Program-made: the position numbers and the translations under genes
Source: Tequatrovirus LF73P3
Direction: 5' to 3' (one strand)
DNA length: 64,000 nt
Sequence record: OZ035756.1
Notes under the pieces: generated by a model
What the model saw: only the letters and a program-made list of their open reading frames with translations
The model's database searches: none
What the model was told of the DNA's origin: nothing
Part shown: positions 10,441 to 40,915 of the stretch, in pieces
How the letters are laid out: each line of letters begins with the position of its first letter
Position numbering within the stretch: the first letter of the stretch is position 1

Positions 10441-10555
10441 ATTTTACCCTTAATTGATTAACCAAGCATTGATAAGCACTAAACTATATTGTGAATAAAA
10501 TTCTGGACCAAAATGAAAAATCATATCATTTATAGTGTCCATGATATAATTCAAT

Positions 10556-11026
10556 TTAATCATGTTTCCACACCCCATCGGTATTTGACCAAAGTCGCTG
10601 ATTATCTGATCCTCGCCACAGCTTTTTGGTCGGAAGATTTTTCTCATACTTCCCATCAATAATAACATCAACATATTTAAGCATTTCTAGTTGTTTAATA
10701 TCTTCAAACTTATATCCTGTCCACACCCAAATGCTTTTATTCGGATAAAGATTTTTTACTGTTTGAACAATGCAATGAACAACATCTCGGTTATCAGGAT
10801 AAAGAGGGTCTCCTCCAGTTATAGTTAATCCTTCTATATAATCATTATTCAAACATTTAATTAATTGTTCCAGTGTTTCACCAGTGAATGGAACGCCATT
10901 TCTAGCATTCCACGTTGATTTATTATAACACCCTTCGCATTTATGCAAACAACCTGTAACGAAAAGAACGACCCTGCATCCAGGGCCATTCACAAAATCG
11001 CAGGGATAAAATCTATCGTAATTCAT
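10556..11026 (-). CDS. nrdG: anaerobic ribonucleotide reductase activating protein NrdG (radical SAM)
   Basis: 156 aa, CxxxCxxC cluster (CLHKCEGCYN). Confidence 0.9.
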   Translation of the reverse strand: MNYDRFYPCDFVNGPGCRVVLFVTGCLHKCEGCYNKSTWNARNGVPFTGETLEQLIKCLNNDYIEGLTITGGDPLYPDNRDVVHCIVQTVKNLYPNKSIWVWTGYKFEDIKQLEMLKYVDVIIDGKYEKNLPTKKLWRGSDNQRLWSNTDGVWKHD

Positions 11027-19786: not shown

Positions 19787-20773
19787 TTATTTCAGAAGAG
19801 TAACCTCAGCGATTTCTTGCCAACCGTTTTTGTCGGTCATAATAAAGTCAGCAAGATAAAGAGCAGTACGCAGTGAAACATTGCGTAAACGATTAACATT
19901 AACTTTCATCCATGATAATGCTTTATAAGTTTCTTCATCAGAAAGACCGCGCTTTTGCATCATGTCAGTTGAAAGAATAACATCTTCAACCCTGACCATA
20001 ATTTCTTCATTAGTGTGAACACCCAAATCCAAATAAACCGAGCGGGACACTAATGCTTGTAAATGTGGAGCAAGTTTAGTACCACGGTCTAATTCGCGGT
20101 CAATGTCAACGTTTGTGATAAAAACAATCGTTCCTTTAAATTCAAACTCACGGTCAATGCCTTTTTCTTCTAAGTAAGAAGATGCAGTGCTCCAGCAGAC
20201 TTTACGGGTCTCTCCAGTGTCCAGAGCAGCTTTTAGAAGATTAAGAATGTCCATATCAGAGAAAACATCCACATCATCAATCAAAAGGACAGAATTCTCT
20301 TCACGATTATTCCAAAGCTGCTCATAAAGACCAATACCAGAGATTTTACCATTAATGCTTTTATATTCAATGTATCCGTTATCATTTGCTTTATTTAAAG
20401 CTTTATCTAAAGAATACGTTTTACCAATACCTGCTGCGCCAGAGATAATTAATGAACGAATATTTCCATTAATAATACCATTCGTCATCATTCCCATAAC
20501 ATTAAATCTTTTATTAATGCGGGTTTTCATATCTTCATATGATTCTTTAACTTCTTCAACTTTTACACCATCATATGAAATATCTGATTTGTAAACCCAA
20601 ACACCGCGACGTTTACCGTCAATTTCAACAAAAACTTTACCATCTCCTTGTGCATCTACCGGAGCATTATCTGGGAACCATTCGCCTAAGAGCTCAAAAG
20701 TTCCAGAGATTTCTTTACCGAAGTAGATACCCTTATTGATAGTTACAGTTTTCATTTTATTCTCCAATTTCAC
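19787..20773 (-). CDS. P-loop NTPase (AAA-like ATPase) of unknown role
   Basis: 328 aa; Walker A GAAGIGKT and Walker B VLLIDDVD. Confidence 0.65.
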   Translation of the reverse strand: MKLENKMKTVTINKGIYFGKEISGTFELLGEWFPDNAPVDAQGDGKVFVEIDGKRRGVWVYKSDISYDGVKVEEVKESYEDMKTRINKRFNVMGMMTNGIINGNIRSLIISGAAGIGKTYSLDKALNKANDNGYIEYKSINGKISGIGLYEQLWNNREENSVLLIDDVDVFSDMDILNLLKAALDTGETRKVCWSTASSYLEEKGIDREFEFKGTIVFITNVDIDRELDRGTKLAPHLQALVSRSVYLDLGVHTNEEIMVRVEDVILSTDMMQKRGLSDEETYKALSWMKVNVNRLRNVSLRTALYLADFIMTDKNGWQEIAEVTLLK

Positions 20774-29727: not shown

Positions 29728-30048
29728 TTATTCTTTAAATCTAATCAATTTATTCATAGACTTTGAAACTTCTGCACGGACCTCATGTAGGTTTTTGAGC
29801 TGTTCAAGACGCTGCTCATAGTAAGCAATTTCATCTTCTTCGAGACAGTCCTGTGAATCTTCTTTAAGATAACTTGCATAGTCCTGGAAAGCTTTACGGA
29901 CTACTTCTTGGAAGTCATCAAGACTTTGAATTTTCTTAGGAGCAACAGATACACGACGAGGGGCAGTATAATACTCATAACCAAACCCTGCGCTTAATTG
30001 AGCCATTAATATTTTTCCTCTGGTTGGAACACAGCACGACAAGCCCAC
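29728..30048 (-). CDS. hypothetical protein (vs.3 position)
   Basis: 106 aa ORF. Confidence 0.5.
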
Positions 30049-30272
30049 ATACTGGCTTCTTTGAGTTTCGTTTTAGCAATAGTTAACTGATCGAGACTTT
30101 CAGCATAATTCTTCGCGAATTCACAGTCTTCACAATTATCTAGCGCTTCCCAGAACTCATCATATAAAGCATCAAAGATAAGTCCTAAACGAACTTCAGC
30201 ATCTTTGATAGCATTCACTTTACTGATTTTATCGTCAGTATGTGGCTTATAACCTTTAATGTCTTCAATCAT
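30006..30272 (-). CDS. hypothetical acidic helical protein (vs.4 position; Acb2-like candidate)
   Basis: 88 aa; positional equivalence to T4 vs.4 only. Confidence 0.4.
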
Positions 30273-30486
30273 ATTTTACTTCCTCACCTGTTTCCAAATC
30301 ATATTCAACTAAACGAATAGGTTCATGAATGCCATATCCTTGAACAGAAATTTCTGTCGTAGGATAAATTCCATTAATATCACCCATGTTCCACGCTTCA
30401 TTAAATTGCTGTTCGCCTGAATTACTAAACCACTCGGCGAAAGCATTTAGCACATCTTCAGAACCTTCAATAATTATCTTTGCCAT
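30265..30486 (-). CDS. hypothetical acidic protein
   Basis: 73 aa ORF. Confidence 0.45.
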   Translation of the reverse strand: MAKIIIEGSEDVLNAFAEWFSNSGEQQFNEAWNMGDINGIYPTTEISVQGYGIHEPIRLVEYDLETGEEVKYD

Positions 30487-30848
30487 TACAAACTCTCGGT
30501 AAAGGTACGAGCGATAACGTCGCGCTGCTGTTCCGGAGTCAGAGAGTTAAAGCGAACTGCATAACCGGATACACGGATGGTCAGCTGCGGATATTTTTCC
30601 GGATGCTTAACTGCATCTTCCAGAGTTTCGCGACGCAGAACGTTAACGTTCAGGTGTTGACCACCCTCGATTTTAACTGTAGGTTGTGTTTCAATTTCAA
30701 TTTCACGGGCATGCAAACCATAGAAAATTTCTGGGTCTACAAAAGAGTCCTCTTTAAAAGTTTTAGAGACAATAATTCGTGCTTGAATACCATCTTCAAA
30801 ATAAATAGTACCTTTATGCGTGCCTTCAAGAATTTGATATGCTTTCAT
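30486..30848 (-). CDS. autonomous glycyl-radical cofactor (GrcA/YfiD-like; T4 Y06I-type)
   Basis: 120 aa; C-terminal [59 protein letters not shown] as in E. coli GrcA; locally GC-rich. Confidence 0.85.
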
Positions 30849-30854
30849 ATAACC

Positions 30855-31184
30855 TCAATTAGAAAATAAATTTATCCAAGATTGTTCTTTAATTAAAAAT
30901 GGCTCAGAATCATATGCCATTAAACTTTGGGTGATTAGTCCTTTAAAAGGTCCATCAATAAATTCCATGGTAAAATATGGAATTTTATTCATTAATCTTG
31001 CATTAGGAGCAGTGCACAAAACTCTGCATCCTTTGAATACACCTTTTTGTAATTTGTATTGCTTAGGATAAAATTCGCTCAAGACGTTGTTATTTGCCAA
31101 AATTTCAAAATGATTCACCAATTTATTTTTAACAGTTTTTGGCGAAAAATAAAGATATTCGAAAAGTTGCGTGTCTGTCATCAT
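30855..31184 (-). CDS. hypothetical protein (start moved to internal Met)
   Basis: Track ORF 30855-31235; MMTDTQLFEYLYF start gives ATGA overlap with upstream gene. Confidence 0.45.
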   Translation of the reverse strand: MMTDTQLFEYLYFSPKTVKNKLVNHFEILANNNVLSEFYPKQYKLQKGVFKGCRVLCTAPNARLMNKIPYFTMEFIDGPFKGLITQSLMAYDSEPFLIKEQSWINLFSN

Positions 31185-39459: not shown

Positions 39460-39535
39460 TGGTCGAGGCAGTAGGGATCGAACCTACGACCTAGGACTTA
39501 GAAGGTCCTTGCTCTTCCTTCTGAGCTATGCCTCG
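39460..39535 (-). tRNA. tRNA-Arg (anticodon UCU)
   Basis: Cloverleaf by hand: 7-bp acceptor CGAGGCA/UGCCUCG, anticodon loop CUUCUAA, T-loop GGUUCGAUCC, encoded CCA. Confidence 0.85.
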
Positions 39536-39538
39536 TAG

Positions 39539-40204
39539 TTAAAATTTCATTTTTCGACCTTTAAACCATCCTTCTGGAATTGGGTCAGTTTTCTTAATAC
39601 GTTTAGAAACTTTTTCATCTAATGAATGAATCCACATCATACCAAATTGGGAATTCTTTTCACCTTTTTGGTGATTATTTTTAGCGTGAATTTCTTTCAT
39701 TTTATTAATAGTTTCAAGAGTATGATGCTTATTTAAAAATCGGCTATTATTTAAAAATTTTTCTTTGTATTCAGGAGTTGACCACAAACGTTTAAATACA
39801 TTTGAACCATTTTTACGATATTTTTCTTGAAGTAAAATATCATTTTTAAAACGTGACTTAAACGATTTAGCTCCTTTTAAACTAGCGTCTTTCTTCTGAT
39901 TTAGCATCTCAGGAATATTTATATGATCCCATCCACCTTCACCGCCAAGTTTTAAATTATACACATCAGGTCTATTTAAAAACTCTTCTGTGACAATATT
40001 TTTCTCGGCTTCAAGCATAGATTCTTTATCGTCAAAATATTCTAATATTTCTTTAGAAAAATTTTCTATACCATACCTGTCTTGGGCTCTTTTTAATAAT
40101 TTACCAGAACCCATATATCCATCATCTAAATTTTCGGTAGAATGCACACCAATATAAATTTTATTATTAATTTTATTTGTTATTTTATAAAGATAAAAAT
40201 GCAT
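39539..40204 (-). CDS. segB: GIY-YIG homing endonuclease SegB
   Basis: 221 aa from MHFYLYKITNKINNKIYIGVHS (GIY-YIG) ... GYMGSGKLL; track ORF N-extension runs into tRNA genes. Confidence 0.8.
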   Translation of the reverse strand: MHFYLYKITNKINNKIYIGVHSTENLDDGYMGSGKLLKRAQDRYGIENFSKEILEYFDDKESMLEAEKNIVTEEFLNRPDVYNLKLGGEGGWDHINIPEMLNQKKDASLKGAKSFKSRFKNDILLQEKYRKNGSNVFKRLWSTPEYKEKFLNNSRFLNKHHTLETINKMKEIHAKNNHQKGEKNSQFGMMWIHSLDEKVSKRIKKTDPIPEGWFKGRKMKF

Positions 40205-40250
40205 ATCAGTCCCTAATAAAGAACTGAGCGTCTCACGACGAGTCATAAAT

Positions 40251-40337
40251 TGGTGGGGAGTGATGGAGTCGAACCACCCGAGTCGCAATGACAATGGATT
40301 TACAGTCCACACCGCTACCTCTACGGGATAACTCCCC
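40251..40337 (-). tRNA. class-II tRNA with anticodon GUA (tRNA-Tyr-like)
   Basis: Hand fold: perfect 7-bp acceptor GGGGAGU/ACUCCCC, anticodon loop CUGUAAA, long variable arm, T-loop UUCGACU, encoded CCA. Confidence 0.6.
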
Positions 40338-40346
40338 TAATTAATT

Positions 40347-40423
40347 TGGTGACCCAGACCAGATTTGAACTGGTAACCTTTCCCTTATGAGGGGACTGCT
40401 GCTAACCATTGAGCTACAGGGCC
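40347..40423 (-). tRNA. tRNA-Ile (anticodon CAU, presumably lysidine-modified)
   Basis: GGCCCUGUAGCUCAAUGGUUAGCAG...CUCAUAA...GGUUCAAAUC...ACCA. Confidence 0.8.
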
Positions 40424-40424
40424 T

Positions 40425-40500
40425 TGGTGCTGATTGACGGAATCGAACCGCCGACATCCTCATTACAAGTGAGGCGCTCTACCTACTGAGCTAAATCAGC
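40425..40500 (-). tRNA. tRNA-Thr (anticodon UGU)
   Basis: GCUGAUUUAGCUCAGUAGGUAGAGC...CUUGUAA...GGUUCGAUUCC...ACCA. Confidence 0.85.
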
Positions 40501-40502
40501 AA

Positions 40503-40589
40503 CGGAGGCGATAGGATTTGAACCTATGAGTCGCCGGAGCGACTGCCGGTTTTCAAGACCGGTGCATTAAACCACTCTGCCACGCCTCC
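40503..40589 (-). tRNA. tRNA-Ser (anticodon UGA), class II
   Basis: GGAGGCGUGGCAGAGUGG...CUUGAAA..., long variable arm, no encoded CCA. Confidence 0.85.
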
Positions 40590-40591
40590 AG

Positions 40592-40665
40592 TCTCCGCGG
40601 CAGGATTTGAACCTGCGACATTCTGCTCCCAAAGCAGACACTCTACCAAACTGAGCTACACGGAG
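40592..40665 (-). tRNA. tRNA-Pro (anticodon UGG)
   Basis: CUCCGUGUAGCUCAGUUUGGUAGAG...UUUGGGA...GGUUCAAAUCC; abuts tRNA-Ser (dimeric precursor arrangement). Confidence 0.85.
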
Positions 40666-40675
40666 TAAATTAAAT

Positions 40676-40749
<74 letters not shown>

Positions 40750-40754
40750 AAATT

Positions 40755-40841
40755 TGGTGCGAGAAGTGGGACTCGAACCCACAAGGAAATCATTCCGCAG
40801 CATTTTAAGTGCTGTGTCTTTACCAATTTGACCATTCTCGC
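40755..40841 (-). tRNA. tRNA-Leu (anticodon UAA), class II
   Basis: GCGAGAAUGGUCAAAUUGGUAAAG...CUUAAAA...GGUUCGAGUCCCACUUCUCGCACCA. Confidence 0.9.
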
Positions 40842-40842
40842 G

Positions 40843-40915
40843 CTGGGAATAAAGGACTCGAACCTTTGCATCTAGCAGTCAAAGTGCTATGCCTTACCAA
40901 CTTGGCTAATTCCCA
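40843..40915 (-). tRNA. tRNA-Gln (anticodon UUG)
   Basis: UGGGAAUUAGCCAAGUUGGUAAGGC...CUUUGAC...GGUUCGAGUCC; directly abuts tRNA-Leu. Confidence 0.85.

Follow-up and report, generated by a model that had tools for sequence, protein, structure and literature searches.

This account concerns vs.6, a gene on the minus strand of a 64,000-nucleotide stretch of DNA from Tequatrovirus LF73P3 (sequence record OZ035756.1), which is referred to below as the window. The source of the open reading frame (ORF) is a T4-like phage, a Tequatrovirus; the DNA of the ORF is 99.2% identical to that of Escherichia phage EP01 and 97.5% identical to vs.6 of T4T, where it is annotated under this name, and a nucleotide search found at least 80% of it covered in 744 phage records. 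The encoded protein has 119 of its 120 residues in common with that of T4T (T54 in the window, P54 in T4T) and is 100% identical in RB68 and many other Tequatroviruses, in whose source records it is named ‘autonomous glycyl radical cofactor GrcA’. The order of the neighbouring genes, vs.8-vs.7-vs.6-vs.5-vs.4-vs.3-regB-vs.1, is that of the T4T annotation, with vs.6 between vs.7 and vs.5 in the interval between denV and regB, and the profile phrog_1209 matches over the full length (5.4e-63; residues 1–120 on profile positions 1–121). The full-length profile, the synteny and the identical database entries place the ORF in the phage vs.6/Y06I family. There is one vs.6-like place per phage record, and T4 has a single GrcA-like locus of ~14-kDa size; from this we infer that Y06I must be vs.6. 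An initial annotation, made from the letters of the window without database searches, had brought in T4 Y06I as a known homolog of GrcA. The homology is supported, but Y06I was treated there as a comparator, whereas the ORF is its ortholog, as the synteny from vs.8 to vs.4 indicates.

The same annotation proposed a GrcA-like glycyl-radical ‘spare part’ protein, and this is borne out. Pfam Gly_radical matches residues 60–101 (2.2e-18), and the closest solved structures are those of E. coli GrcA (PDB 6OWR; 4.6e-42), with vs.6 aligned to GrcA residues 28–127, and of the PflB C-terminus. As is typical of GrcA, the product is a ~14-kDa protein with an RVSGY glycine loop near its C-terminus and without a catalytic barrel. 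Residues 58–120 align with residues 697–759 of PflB; the aligned part of the C-terminal glycyl-radical domain of PflB (PDB 1H16/2PFL) is the portion that is lost or loosened after cleavage by oxygen at G734, and vs.6 differs from PflB in lacking the barrel. An early comparison of T4-like genomes mentions vs.6 solely for its conservation and its match to Gly_radical, with a possible link to nucleotide metabolism (PMC1524935). Gene, annotation and biochemical activity had been described before, and the locus is not a new kind of system; what is added here is evolutionary. The features of the gene are collected in Table 1.

Table 1. Features of vs.6 in the window (positions counted from the first nucleotide of the window; GC3, GC content at third codon positions).
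Feature	Position	Strand	Remarks
vs.6 (Y06I ortholog, phage GrcA)	30486..30848	-	ATG..TAA; 120-residue autonomous glycyl-radical ‘spare part’ protein
Phage-type 5' half	30669..30848	-	Codons 1–60; GC 33%, GC3 20%; no nucleotide match to E. coli
BLAST match to E. coli grcA, full extent	30486..30668	-	Gene nucleotides 181–363; 97.3% identity, both junction zones included
Host-derived tract	30499..30665	-	167 nucleotides exact to E. coli MG1655 grcA; gene nucleotides 184–350, codons ~62–116; structured glycyl-radical domain
3' tail with phage-type synonymous codons	30486..30498	-	ACC GAG AGT TTG TAA (host: ACT GAA AGC CTG TAA)
GGT codon of Gly95, predicted radical glycine	30564..30566	-	RVSGY motif; equivalence to GrcA G102 and PflB G734 suggested by alignment
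GAGG, Shine-Dalgarno-like motif	30856..30859	-	7 nucleotides before the ATG of vs.6; overlaps the stop codon of vs.7; context ...AATTGAGGTTATATG

Over most of its 3' half, vs.6 is identical to the grcA gene of E. coli. Residues 62–120 of the protein equal residues 69–127 of E. coli GrcA without exception, the radical glycine included (RVSG95Y; BLASTP), as had been stated for the last ~60 residues in the initial annotation. The likeness extends to the DNA: gene nucleotides 181–363 are 97.3% identical to grcA in 5,426 of 5,426 complete E. coli genomes, a level much higher than a diverged homolog would show, and nucleotides 184–350 match grcA of MG1655 at 167 of 167 positions, the longest exact run. 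Mismatches between vs.6 and E. coli grcA are found at the ends of the match only (gene nucleotides 180 and 183 at one end; 351, 354 and 357–358 at the other), and an exact run of this length would have a chance probability of ~1e-21 at a background identity of 75%. The grcA genes of other enterobacteria differ from the tract at 14–42 sites, a cryptic Escherichia sp. with three differences being the exception; the count is 14 for Citrobacter, 19 for Klebsiella pneumoniae and 25 for the median enterobacterial or pasteurellacean grcA. Phage homologs that lack the host tract show 41–46 differences over the same 167 nucleotides. The donor was grcA and not pflB, as the nucleotide identity of vs.6 to pflB is only ~80%.

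The composition of the gene changes with its identity. GC content is not uniform along the ORF: the 5' half has 32.8% and the 3' half 50.0%, with a parallel rise of GC3 from 19.7% to 45.5%. For comparison, GC3 is 45.0% in the C-terminal half of E. coli grcA. Together with the exact match to MG1655, this step upholds the earlier proposal of a GC-rich, host-derived 3' half. The GC content of the tract is at the 99.6th percentile of the window, which has 35% GC overall, and the tract is the sole segment of window positions 20001–45000 to match E. coli chromosomes (megablast; query positions 10482–10668). The other GC peaks of the window are explained by nine tRNA genes clustered at 39460–40915 on the minus strand (Arg, Tyr, Met/CAT, Thr, Ser, Pro, Gly, Leu and Gln); within the cluster, the tRNA-Tyr gene (40251–40337) matches, at ~90%, genes for tRNA-Tyr carried by some E. 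coli plasmids.

Each junction of the tract falls within the ORF. At the 5' junction the phage-type codons AAA ATY immediately precede GARGGTGG, and upstream of it the 5' half is 72–90% identical to that of other Tevenvirinae; at the 3' junction the last four sense codons stay phage-type. A maximum chi-squared analysis in which the parents were E. coli grcA and the homolog of a Karamvirus gave one breakpoint, at codon column 69 of the alignment (vs.6 codon 62; chi-squared 87.3, permutation p ≤ 0.0005). To its left, 65 informative sites are phage-like and seven host-like; to its right, the numbers are one and 44. The same breakpoint was obtained for the Klebsiella phage KP17. It should also be mentioned that Escherichia phage vB-Eco-KMB39 (OR539219.1; our locus L178:471-580) has a 55-bp tandem duplication straddling the 5' junction, with a frameshift by which its vs.6 is annotated as two coding sequences; this duplication could be a by-product of recombination or an assembly error.

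KP17, a member of Jiaodavirus, provides the second instance of such a tract. The 3' half of its vs.6 is 97.1% identical to grcA of K. pneumoniae and 88% identical to that of E. coli. When E. coli grcA is searched against phages, 632 records match at 95–99% (phages of E. coli, Shigella and Yersinia, T4 and RB69) and Klebsiella phages at 86–89%; with K. pneumoniae grcA, 106 records match at 95–99% (Klebsiella and Raoultella phages) and E. coli phages at 86–88%. No match in either search reaches upstream of grcA nucleotide ~199 or spans 80% of grcA. Over 152 nucleotides, the Jiaodavirus tract has one to three differences to K. pneumoniae, 10–12 to K. aerogenes and 18–19 to E. coli, and LLDAVEH, a run of residues specific to Klebsiella, is present in the Klebsiella phages. 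The position of the 3' junction is variable in Tequatroviruses and Mosigviruses; in Klebsiella phages it is earlier, at about codon 111. In these comparisons the annotated grcA of K. aerogenes NCTC10006 (LR134122.1; L097:200-584), which is truncated by an extra A in a homopolymer, was used with that base removed; the extra A is probably a sequencing error. Tequatrovirus and Mosigvirus have a tract of E. coli type and Jiaodavirus has one of K. pneumoniae type, so that at least two independent host-to-phage replacements took place at the same position. The type of tract and the labelled host do not agree in several records (PV654520.1, LR215723.1 / NC_055723.1, OK499996.1 and PQ154968.1): a ‘Pseudomonas phage’ and Yersinia phages have the E. 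coli-type tract, and K. aerogenes and Raoultella phages have the K. pneumoniae-type tract.

We favour, with a probability of about 0.85, a reading in which vs.6 belongs to an old phage lineage of grcA, encoding a spare-part protein, the 3' half of which would have been overwritten by host grcA through homologous recombination. The 5' half, encoding a disordered and fast-evolving N-terminal region, would have drifted to phage composition, and the 3' half, encoding the structured glycyl-radical domain, would have been replaced from the chromosome in a process resembling gene conversion or marker rescue between replicating phage DNA and host DNA. The crossovers would fall at the edges of the sole stretch with remaining nucleotide homology between phage and host. 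The sequences establish which gene this is, that it is a mosaic with defined breakpoints, that transfer ran from host to phage and that at least two separate events took place; the mechanism of recombination, and whether exchange goes on today, are conclusions drawn from them. In T4 marker rescue and insertion-substitution, cytosine-containing homologous DNA is recombined into replicating T4 genomes by the phage recombination machinery. This is the route that we propose for the grcA tract, with the difference that the donor would be the natural host chromosome and the homology initially imperfect.

As to function, host PflA would abstract a hydrogen atom from Gly95 of vs.6 and so install the radical, and the C-terminal domain would then take the place that cleavage of PflB by oxygen at G734 leaves empty. 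Conversion of pyruvate to acetyl-CoA and formate would be restored, and with it a fermentative supply of acetyl-CoA and ATP during infection at low oxygen. The passages of PMC8683613 that cite Wagner 2001 state that T4 Y06I is activated by PFL-AE and restores oxygen-cleaved PFL. The phage N-terminal half is homologous to that of GrcA but only ~27% identical.

The age of the tract bears on how often such exchange occurs. Between the window and a Mosigvirus, identity is 68–97% in the 5' half of vs.6 and in 60-nucleotide windows up to ~150 nucleotides upstream and ~300 nucleotides downstream, against 97–100% in the tract; farther out, inside vs.7 and vs.4, it falls to 37–67%. Third codon positions differ at 13 of 60 sites in the 5' half and at three of 55 in the tract (Fisher p = 0.015). 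In the comparison with the tract-free Karamvirus homolog the numbers are 26 of 60 for the 5' half and 31 of 55 for the tract region; third positions are thus free to vary, and constraint on the protein does not explain the synonymous silence of the tract. Judged by these differences, the tract is younger than the split of the phage genera. In addition, a site at which E. coli is polymorphic (CGC/CGT) has the MG1655 allele CGC in the window and CGT in T4T, so that T4T and certain strains of E. coli agree at 183 of 185 nucleotides. The conservation of the tract relative to its flanks, the CGC and CGT alleles and the variable 3' junctions suggest repeated or recent conversion.

Two accounts of this pattern have to be compared. 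The first is that vs.6 is in concerted evolution with the chromosomal grcA of whichever species the phage is currently replicated in, the phage machinery occasionally rescuing the host allele; we offer this tentatively, at somewhat less than an even chance, and continual refreshment of the tract in every host seems, from the sequences, to be roughly an even bet. The Tequatroviruses labelled as Yersinia or Pseudomonas phages with an E. coli tract, and the K. aerogenes and Raoultella phages with a K. pneumoniae tract, would fit it. Were it true, the tract would never decay to phage composition and would act as a natural record of the recent host species, and there would be a directly measurable and ongoing gene flow from the host chromosome to a strictly lytic phage with modified DNA, of which the literature searched gave no account. 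The second account accepts the same mosaic but attributes it to two or a few one-off replacements, followed by vertical inheritance and by spread through recombination between co-infecting phages, with no continuing exchange with the host. We regard it as a serious possibility on which we would still not quite bet. It is favoured by the 5' junction common to all carriers, by phage-specific changes from C to T within the tract that are absent from E. coli and look like decay, and by the lack of a Salmonella-type tract among the phage records. It is disfavoured by the far lower divergence of the tract than of its flanks between Tequatrovirus and Mosigvirus, by 3' junctions that differ among close relatives, by phage CGC and CGT alleles that mirror the polymorphism of E. 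coli, and by the presence in every infection of ~170 nucleotides of perfect homology to the host chromosome; T4 recombines efficiently with homologous plasmid DNA, as marker rescue demonstrates, which also counts against one-off replacement.

Several observations weigh against the recombination reading that we favour, or limit its scope. Mosigvirus LF82-8 has two C-to-T variants within the tract that are absent from all 5,426 E. coli genomes, which suggests decay, and not continual refreshment, of some tracts. The tract of Tequatrovirus and Mosigvirus could be the result of one event spread by phage-phage recombination, so that two events are the secure minimum. Nor is the process universal: searched against all phage records, Salmonella grcA gave a best identity of 83.8%, the matches all being E. 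coli-type tracts, and no Salmonella-type tract was found among them; the E. coli-infecting Krischviruses are without the tract, their best match being 75%, to pflB. The mechanism and frequency of the exchange are themselves put forward on the strength of sequence comparison. On the protein side, the NCBIfam equivalog model for GrcA (TIGR04365) gives vs.6 154.6 bits, short of its cutoff of 170, because only model positions 25–126 align; E. coli GrcA scores 234. In all other features compared vs.6 is GrcA-like. In spite of its RefSeq name GrcA, we accordingly place it in a phage clade of GrcA-like ‘spare part’ proteins rather than among the strict equivalogs of GrcA. Finally, the spare-part function of the window allele would be carried over from T4 Y06I, which was the allele assayed and with which it is identical at 119 of 120 residues.

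A different origin of the mosaic had been proposed in the initial annotation, namely the fusion of a host-derived segment to a phage-specific N-terminus unrelated to GrcA; this would amount to illegitimate recombination, with a chimeric gene as the result. The sharp step in composition and identity at codons 61–62, and a 5' half without nucleotide similarity to grcA, are what such a fusion would produce, but the N-terminal half is not unrelated. Ten diverse phage and ten bacterial GrcA N-terminal halves were aligned separately, with the conserved C-terminal domain removed, and compared profile to profile (hhalign); the two are homologous with a probability of 96.7% (E 3.8e-10, 60 columns, 27% identity). 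The N-terminal halves encoded by T4-like contigs from oral metagenomes are visibly intermediate between bacterial GrcA and vs.6. Furthermore, full-length homologs occur across Straboviridae and T5-like phages (1,591 records), and many are without the host tract: the Karamvirus homolog has 38% GC in both halves, and the homologs of Krischvirus, Aeromonas and T5-like phages reach 68–80% identity to the grcA genes of an 83-species panel and share no exact run longer than 29 nucleotides with them. Both junctions lie within this homologous ORF, the 3' junction upstream of the stop codon, and the 5' junction is found at the same spot in the independent Klebsiella-type event, as expected if crossovers are confined to pre-existing homology. 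From the homologous N-terminal halves, the tract-free full-length relatives, some of them of uniform GC content, and the junctions inside the ORF it follows that a recombination patch, and not a fusion, is indicated; we consider a fusion very unlikely. The simplest reading of these sequences is that a phage homolog of grcA, already present in full length, was patched by homologous recombination.

The position of the patch can be related to the structure of the bacterial protein. Residues 1–60 of YfiD are disordered, and residues 61–127 are structured and replace residues 693–759 of PflB (PMC8683613). The 5' boundary of the tract lies near the boundary at residues 60/61, six to seven codons inside the structured domain. 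The disordered half would evolve fast enough for DNA homology to be lost, and the structured half would be conserved enough for recombination to continue.

A number of further records deserve mention on their own. In phages of Enterobacter and in Slopekvirus and Pseudotevenvirus (L086, L087, L088 and L109-L115), the 3' half of vs.6 has 46–48% GC against 38–41% in the 5' half; the identity of these 3' halves to the grcA genes of the panel is only 80–85%, no exact run exceeds 20 nucleotides, and they could be old decayed tracts or derive from unsampled donors. T4-like phage GrcA homologs are encoded by the IMG/VR oral-metagenome contigs L116-L121 (gene at ~601-990). One of these, L118, has a 53-nucleotide exact run with Haemophilus parainfluenzae grcA; it was not counted as an event, the run being too short and the host panel incomplete, and is possibly a short host tract in Pasteurellaceae phages. 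The Krischvirus JEP8 has the PflB-like residues REMLLDA, and a patch derived from pflB was considered and rejected, as the best nucleotide identity to E. coli is 75%. A Yersinia-type tract was likewise rejected for IMG/VR contig L126, which is 91% identical to Yersinia grcA but encodes a bacterial-type GrcA (MITGIQITK...) and is host DNA. The IMG/VR ‘viral’ contigs L167-L177 carry pflB-like C-terminal ORFs of ~50% GC and are, with L126, host or prophage-adjacent DNA and not phage vs.6. In the Morganella phage vB_Mm5 (L089:137-790) the homolog is the C-terminal part of a 217-residue ORF with an extra N-terminal region and is directly followed by an HNH endonuclease gene. In the Aeromonas phage Ah1 (L095:401-784) it lies between nrdG, encoding the activase of the anaerobic ribonucleotide reductase, and nrdC/nrdH, a context of redox functions and anaerobic ribonucleotide reduction that is unlike that in T4.

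A further alternative is a single ancient capture of the whole of grcA, after which the 3' half was kept host-like by purifying selection or by adaptation to E. coli codon usage. The C-terminal domain is indeed highly conserved as a protein in all phage homologs. However, tract-free homologs with nearly the same protein domain differ at 41–46 of the 167 nucleotides and at 31 of 55 third positions, Krischviruses that infect E. coli are only 75% identical, and Klebsiella phages match Klebsiella and not E. coli; such a capture is therefore extremely improbable.

With regard to direction, E. coli grcA is uniform in composition (46.5% and 49.5% GC in its two halves) and phage vs.6 is not, and the differences in grcA between hosts are of a size typical of the genera. 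From this uniformity, the host-type GC3 of the tract, its presence in all E. coli genomes and the genus-typical divergence of the host genes, it follows that the transfer was from host to phage. The reverse, in which E. coli and K. pneumoniae each acquired the 3' half of grcA from T4-like phages, is hardly credible, since near-identity alone gives no direction but the host genes are uniform and the phage genes are not, the GC3 of the tract equals that of host grcA and not that of the phage, the tract is in every one of the 5,426 E. coli genomes, and host 3' halves diverge in step with genus relationships, the sample being consistent with the species tree.

Comparison with known systems makes clear in what respects this one differs. 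T4 Y06I is the ortholog of the window gene at the same place between vs.7 and vs.5; T4T vs.6 differs in having P54, a CGT codon in the tract and slightly different junction nucleotides, where the window has T54 and the MG1655-type CGC. E. coli GrcA/YfiD (6OWR; TIGR04365 / IPR011140) is, like vs.6, a small autonomous glycyl-radical protein; the C-terminal 59 residues and 167 nucleotides are identical and the N-terminal half is homologous. In contrast to GrcA, vs.6 is seven residues shorter, has an N-terminal half ~27% identical at profile level, falls below the equivalog cutoff, and is the product of a lytic phage gene that lies among the vs genes in AT-rich surroundings. An evolutionary parallel is provided by psbA and psbD of cyanophages, in which segments have been exchanged between phage and host copies, with patchy GC content (Zeidner 2005; Sullivan 2006, PMC1484495). 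These are likewise host-derived metabolic genes in T4-like phages, with statistically supported exchange of segments between host and phage. In vs.6, unlike psbA and psbD, the donor species can be named, there are zero to three differences to the donor, a single defined protein domain is concerned, the versions of two enterobacterial hosts are found at the same place, and no transfer from phage to host is seen. In the full-text literature we found no description of a nucleotide mosaic of vs.6 and grcA or of host-specific versions; coverage was incomplete, and a prior mention is possible.

A strictly lytic T4-type phage, which degrades host DNA, thus bears 167 nucleotides identical to the host chromosome, and a sister genus infecting Klebsiella bears the Klebsiella version. 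This is unusually clean evidence for what would be repeated recombination from the host chromosome into a lytic phage, in a metabolic helper gene. The tract may be usable as a sequence marker of the recent host species of a phage. A caution follows for annotation and contamination filters: sequence in a phage genome that matches the host perfectly can be genuine. Moreover, vs.6 and grcA offer a simple experimental system in which the frequency of exchange could be measured with barcoded host grcA.

Some minor features of the locus complete the description. The TAA stop of vs.6 overlaps the start codon of vs.5 (TAATG). A scan for promoters and terminators around vs.6 gave no signal exceeding the shuffled expectation, which fits co-transcription with vs.8 and vs.7 upstream and vs.5 and vs.4 downstream. 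An antisense ORF at 30480..30869 on the plus strand (129 residues) is unsupported by any evidence and was put down to the coding strand opposite, of which it would be a by-product. Two genes downstream of vs.6, vs.4 (30006–30272, minus strand) encodes a match to the Pfam Acb2/Tad1 hairpin domain (1.2e-19), that of an anti-CBASS cyclic-nucleotide sponge.

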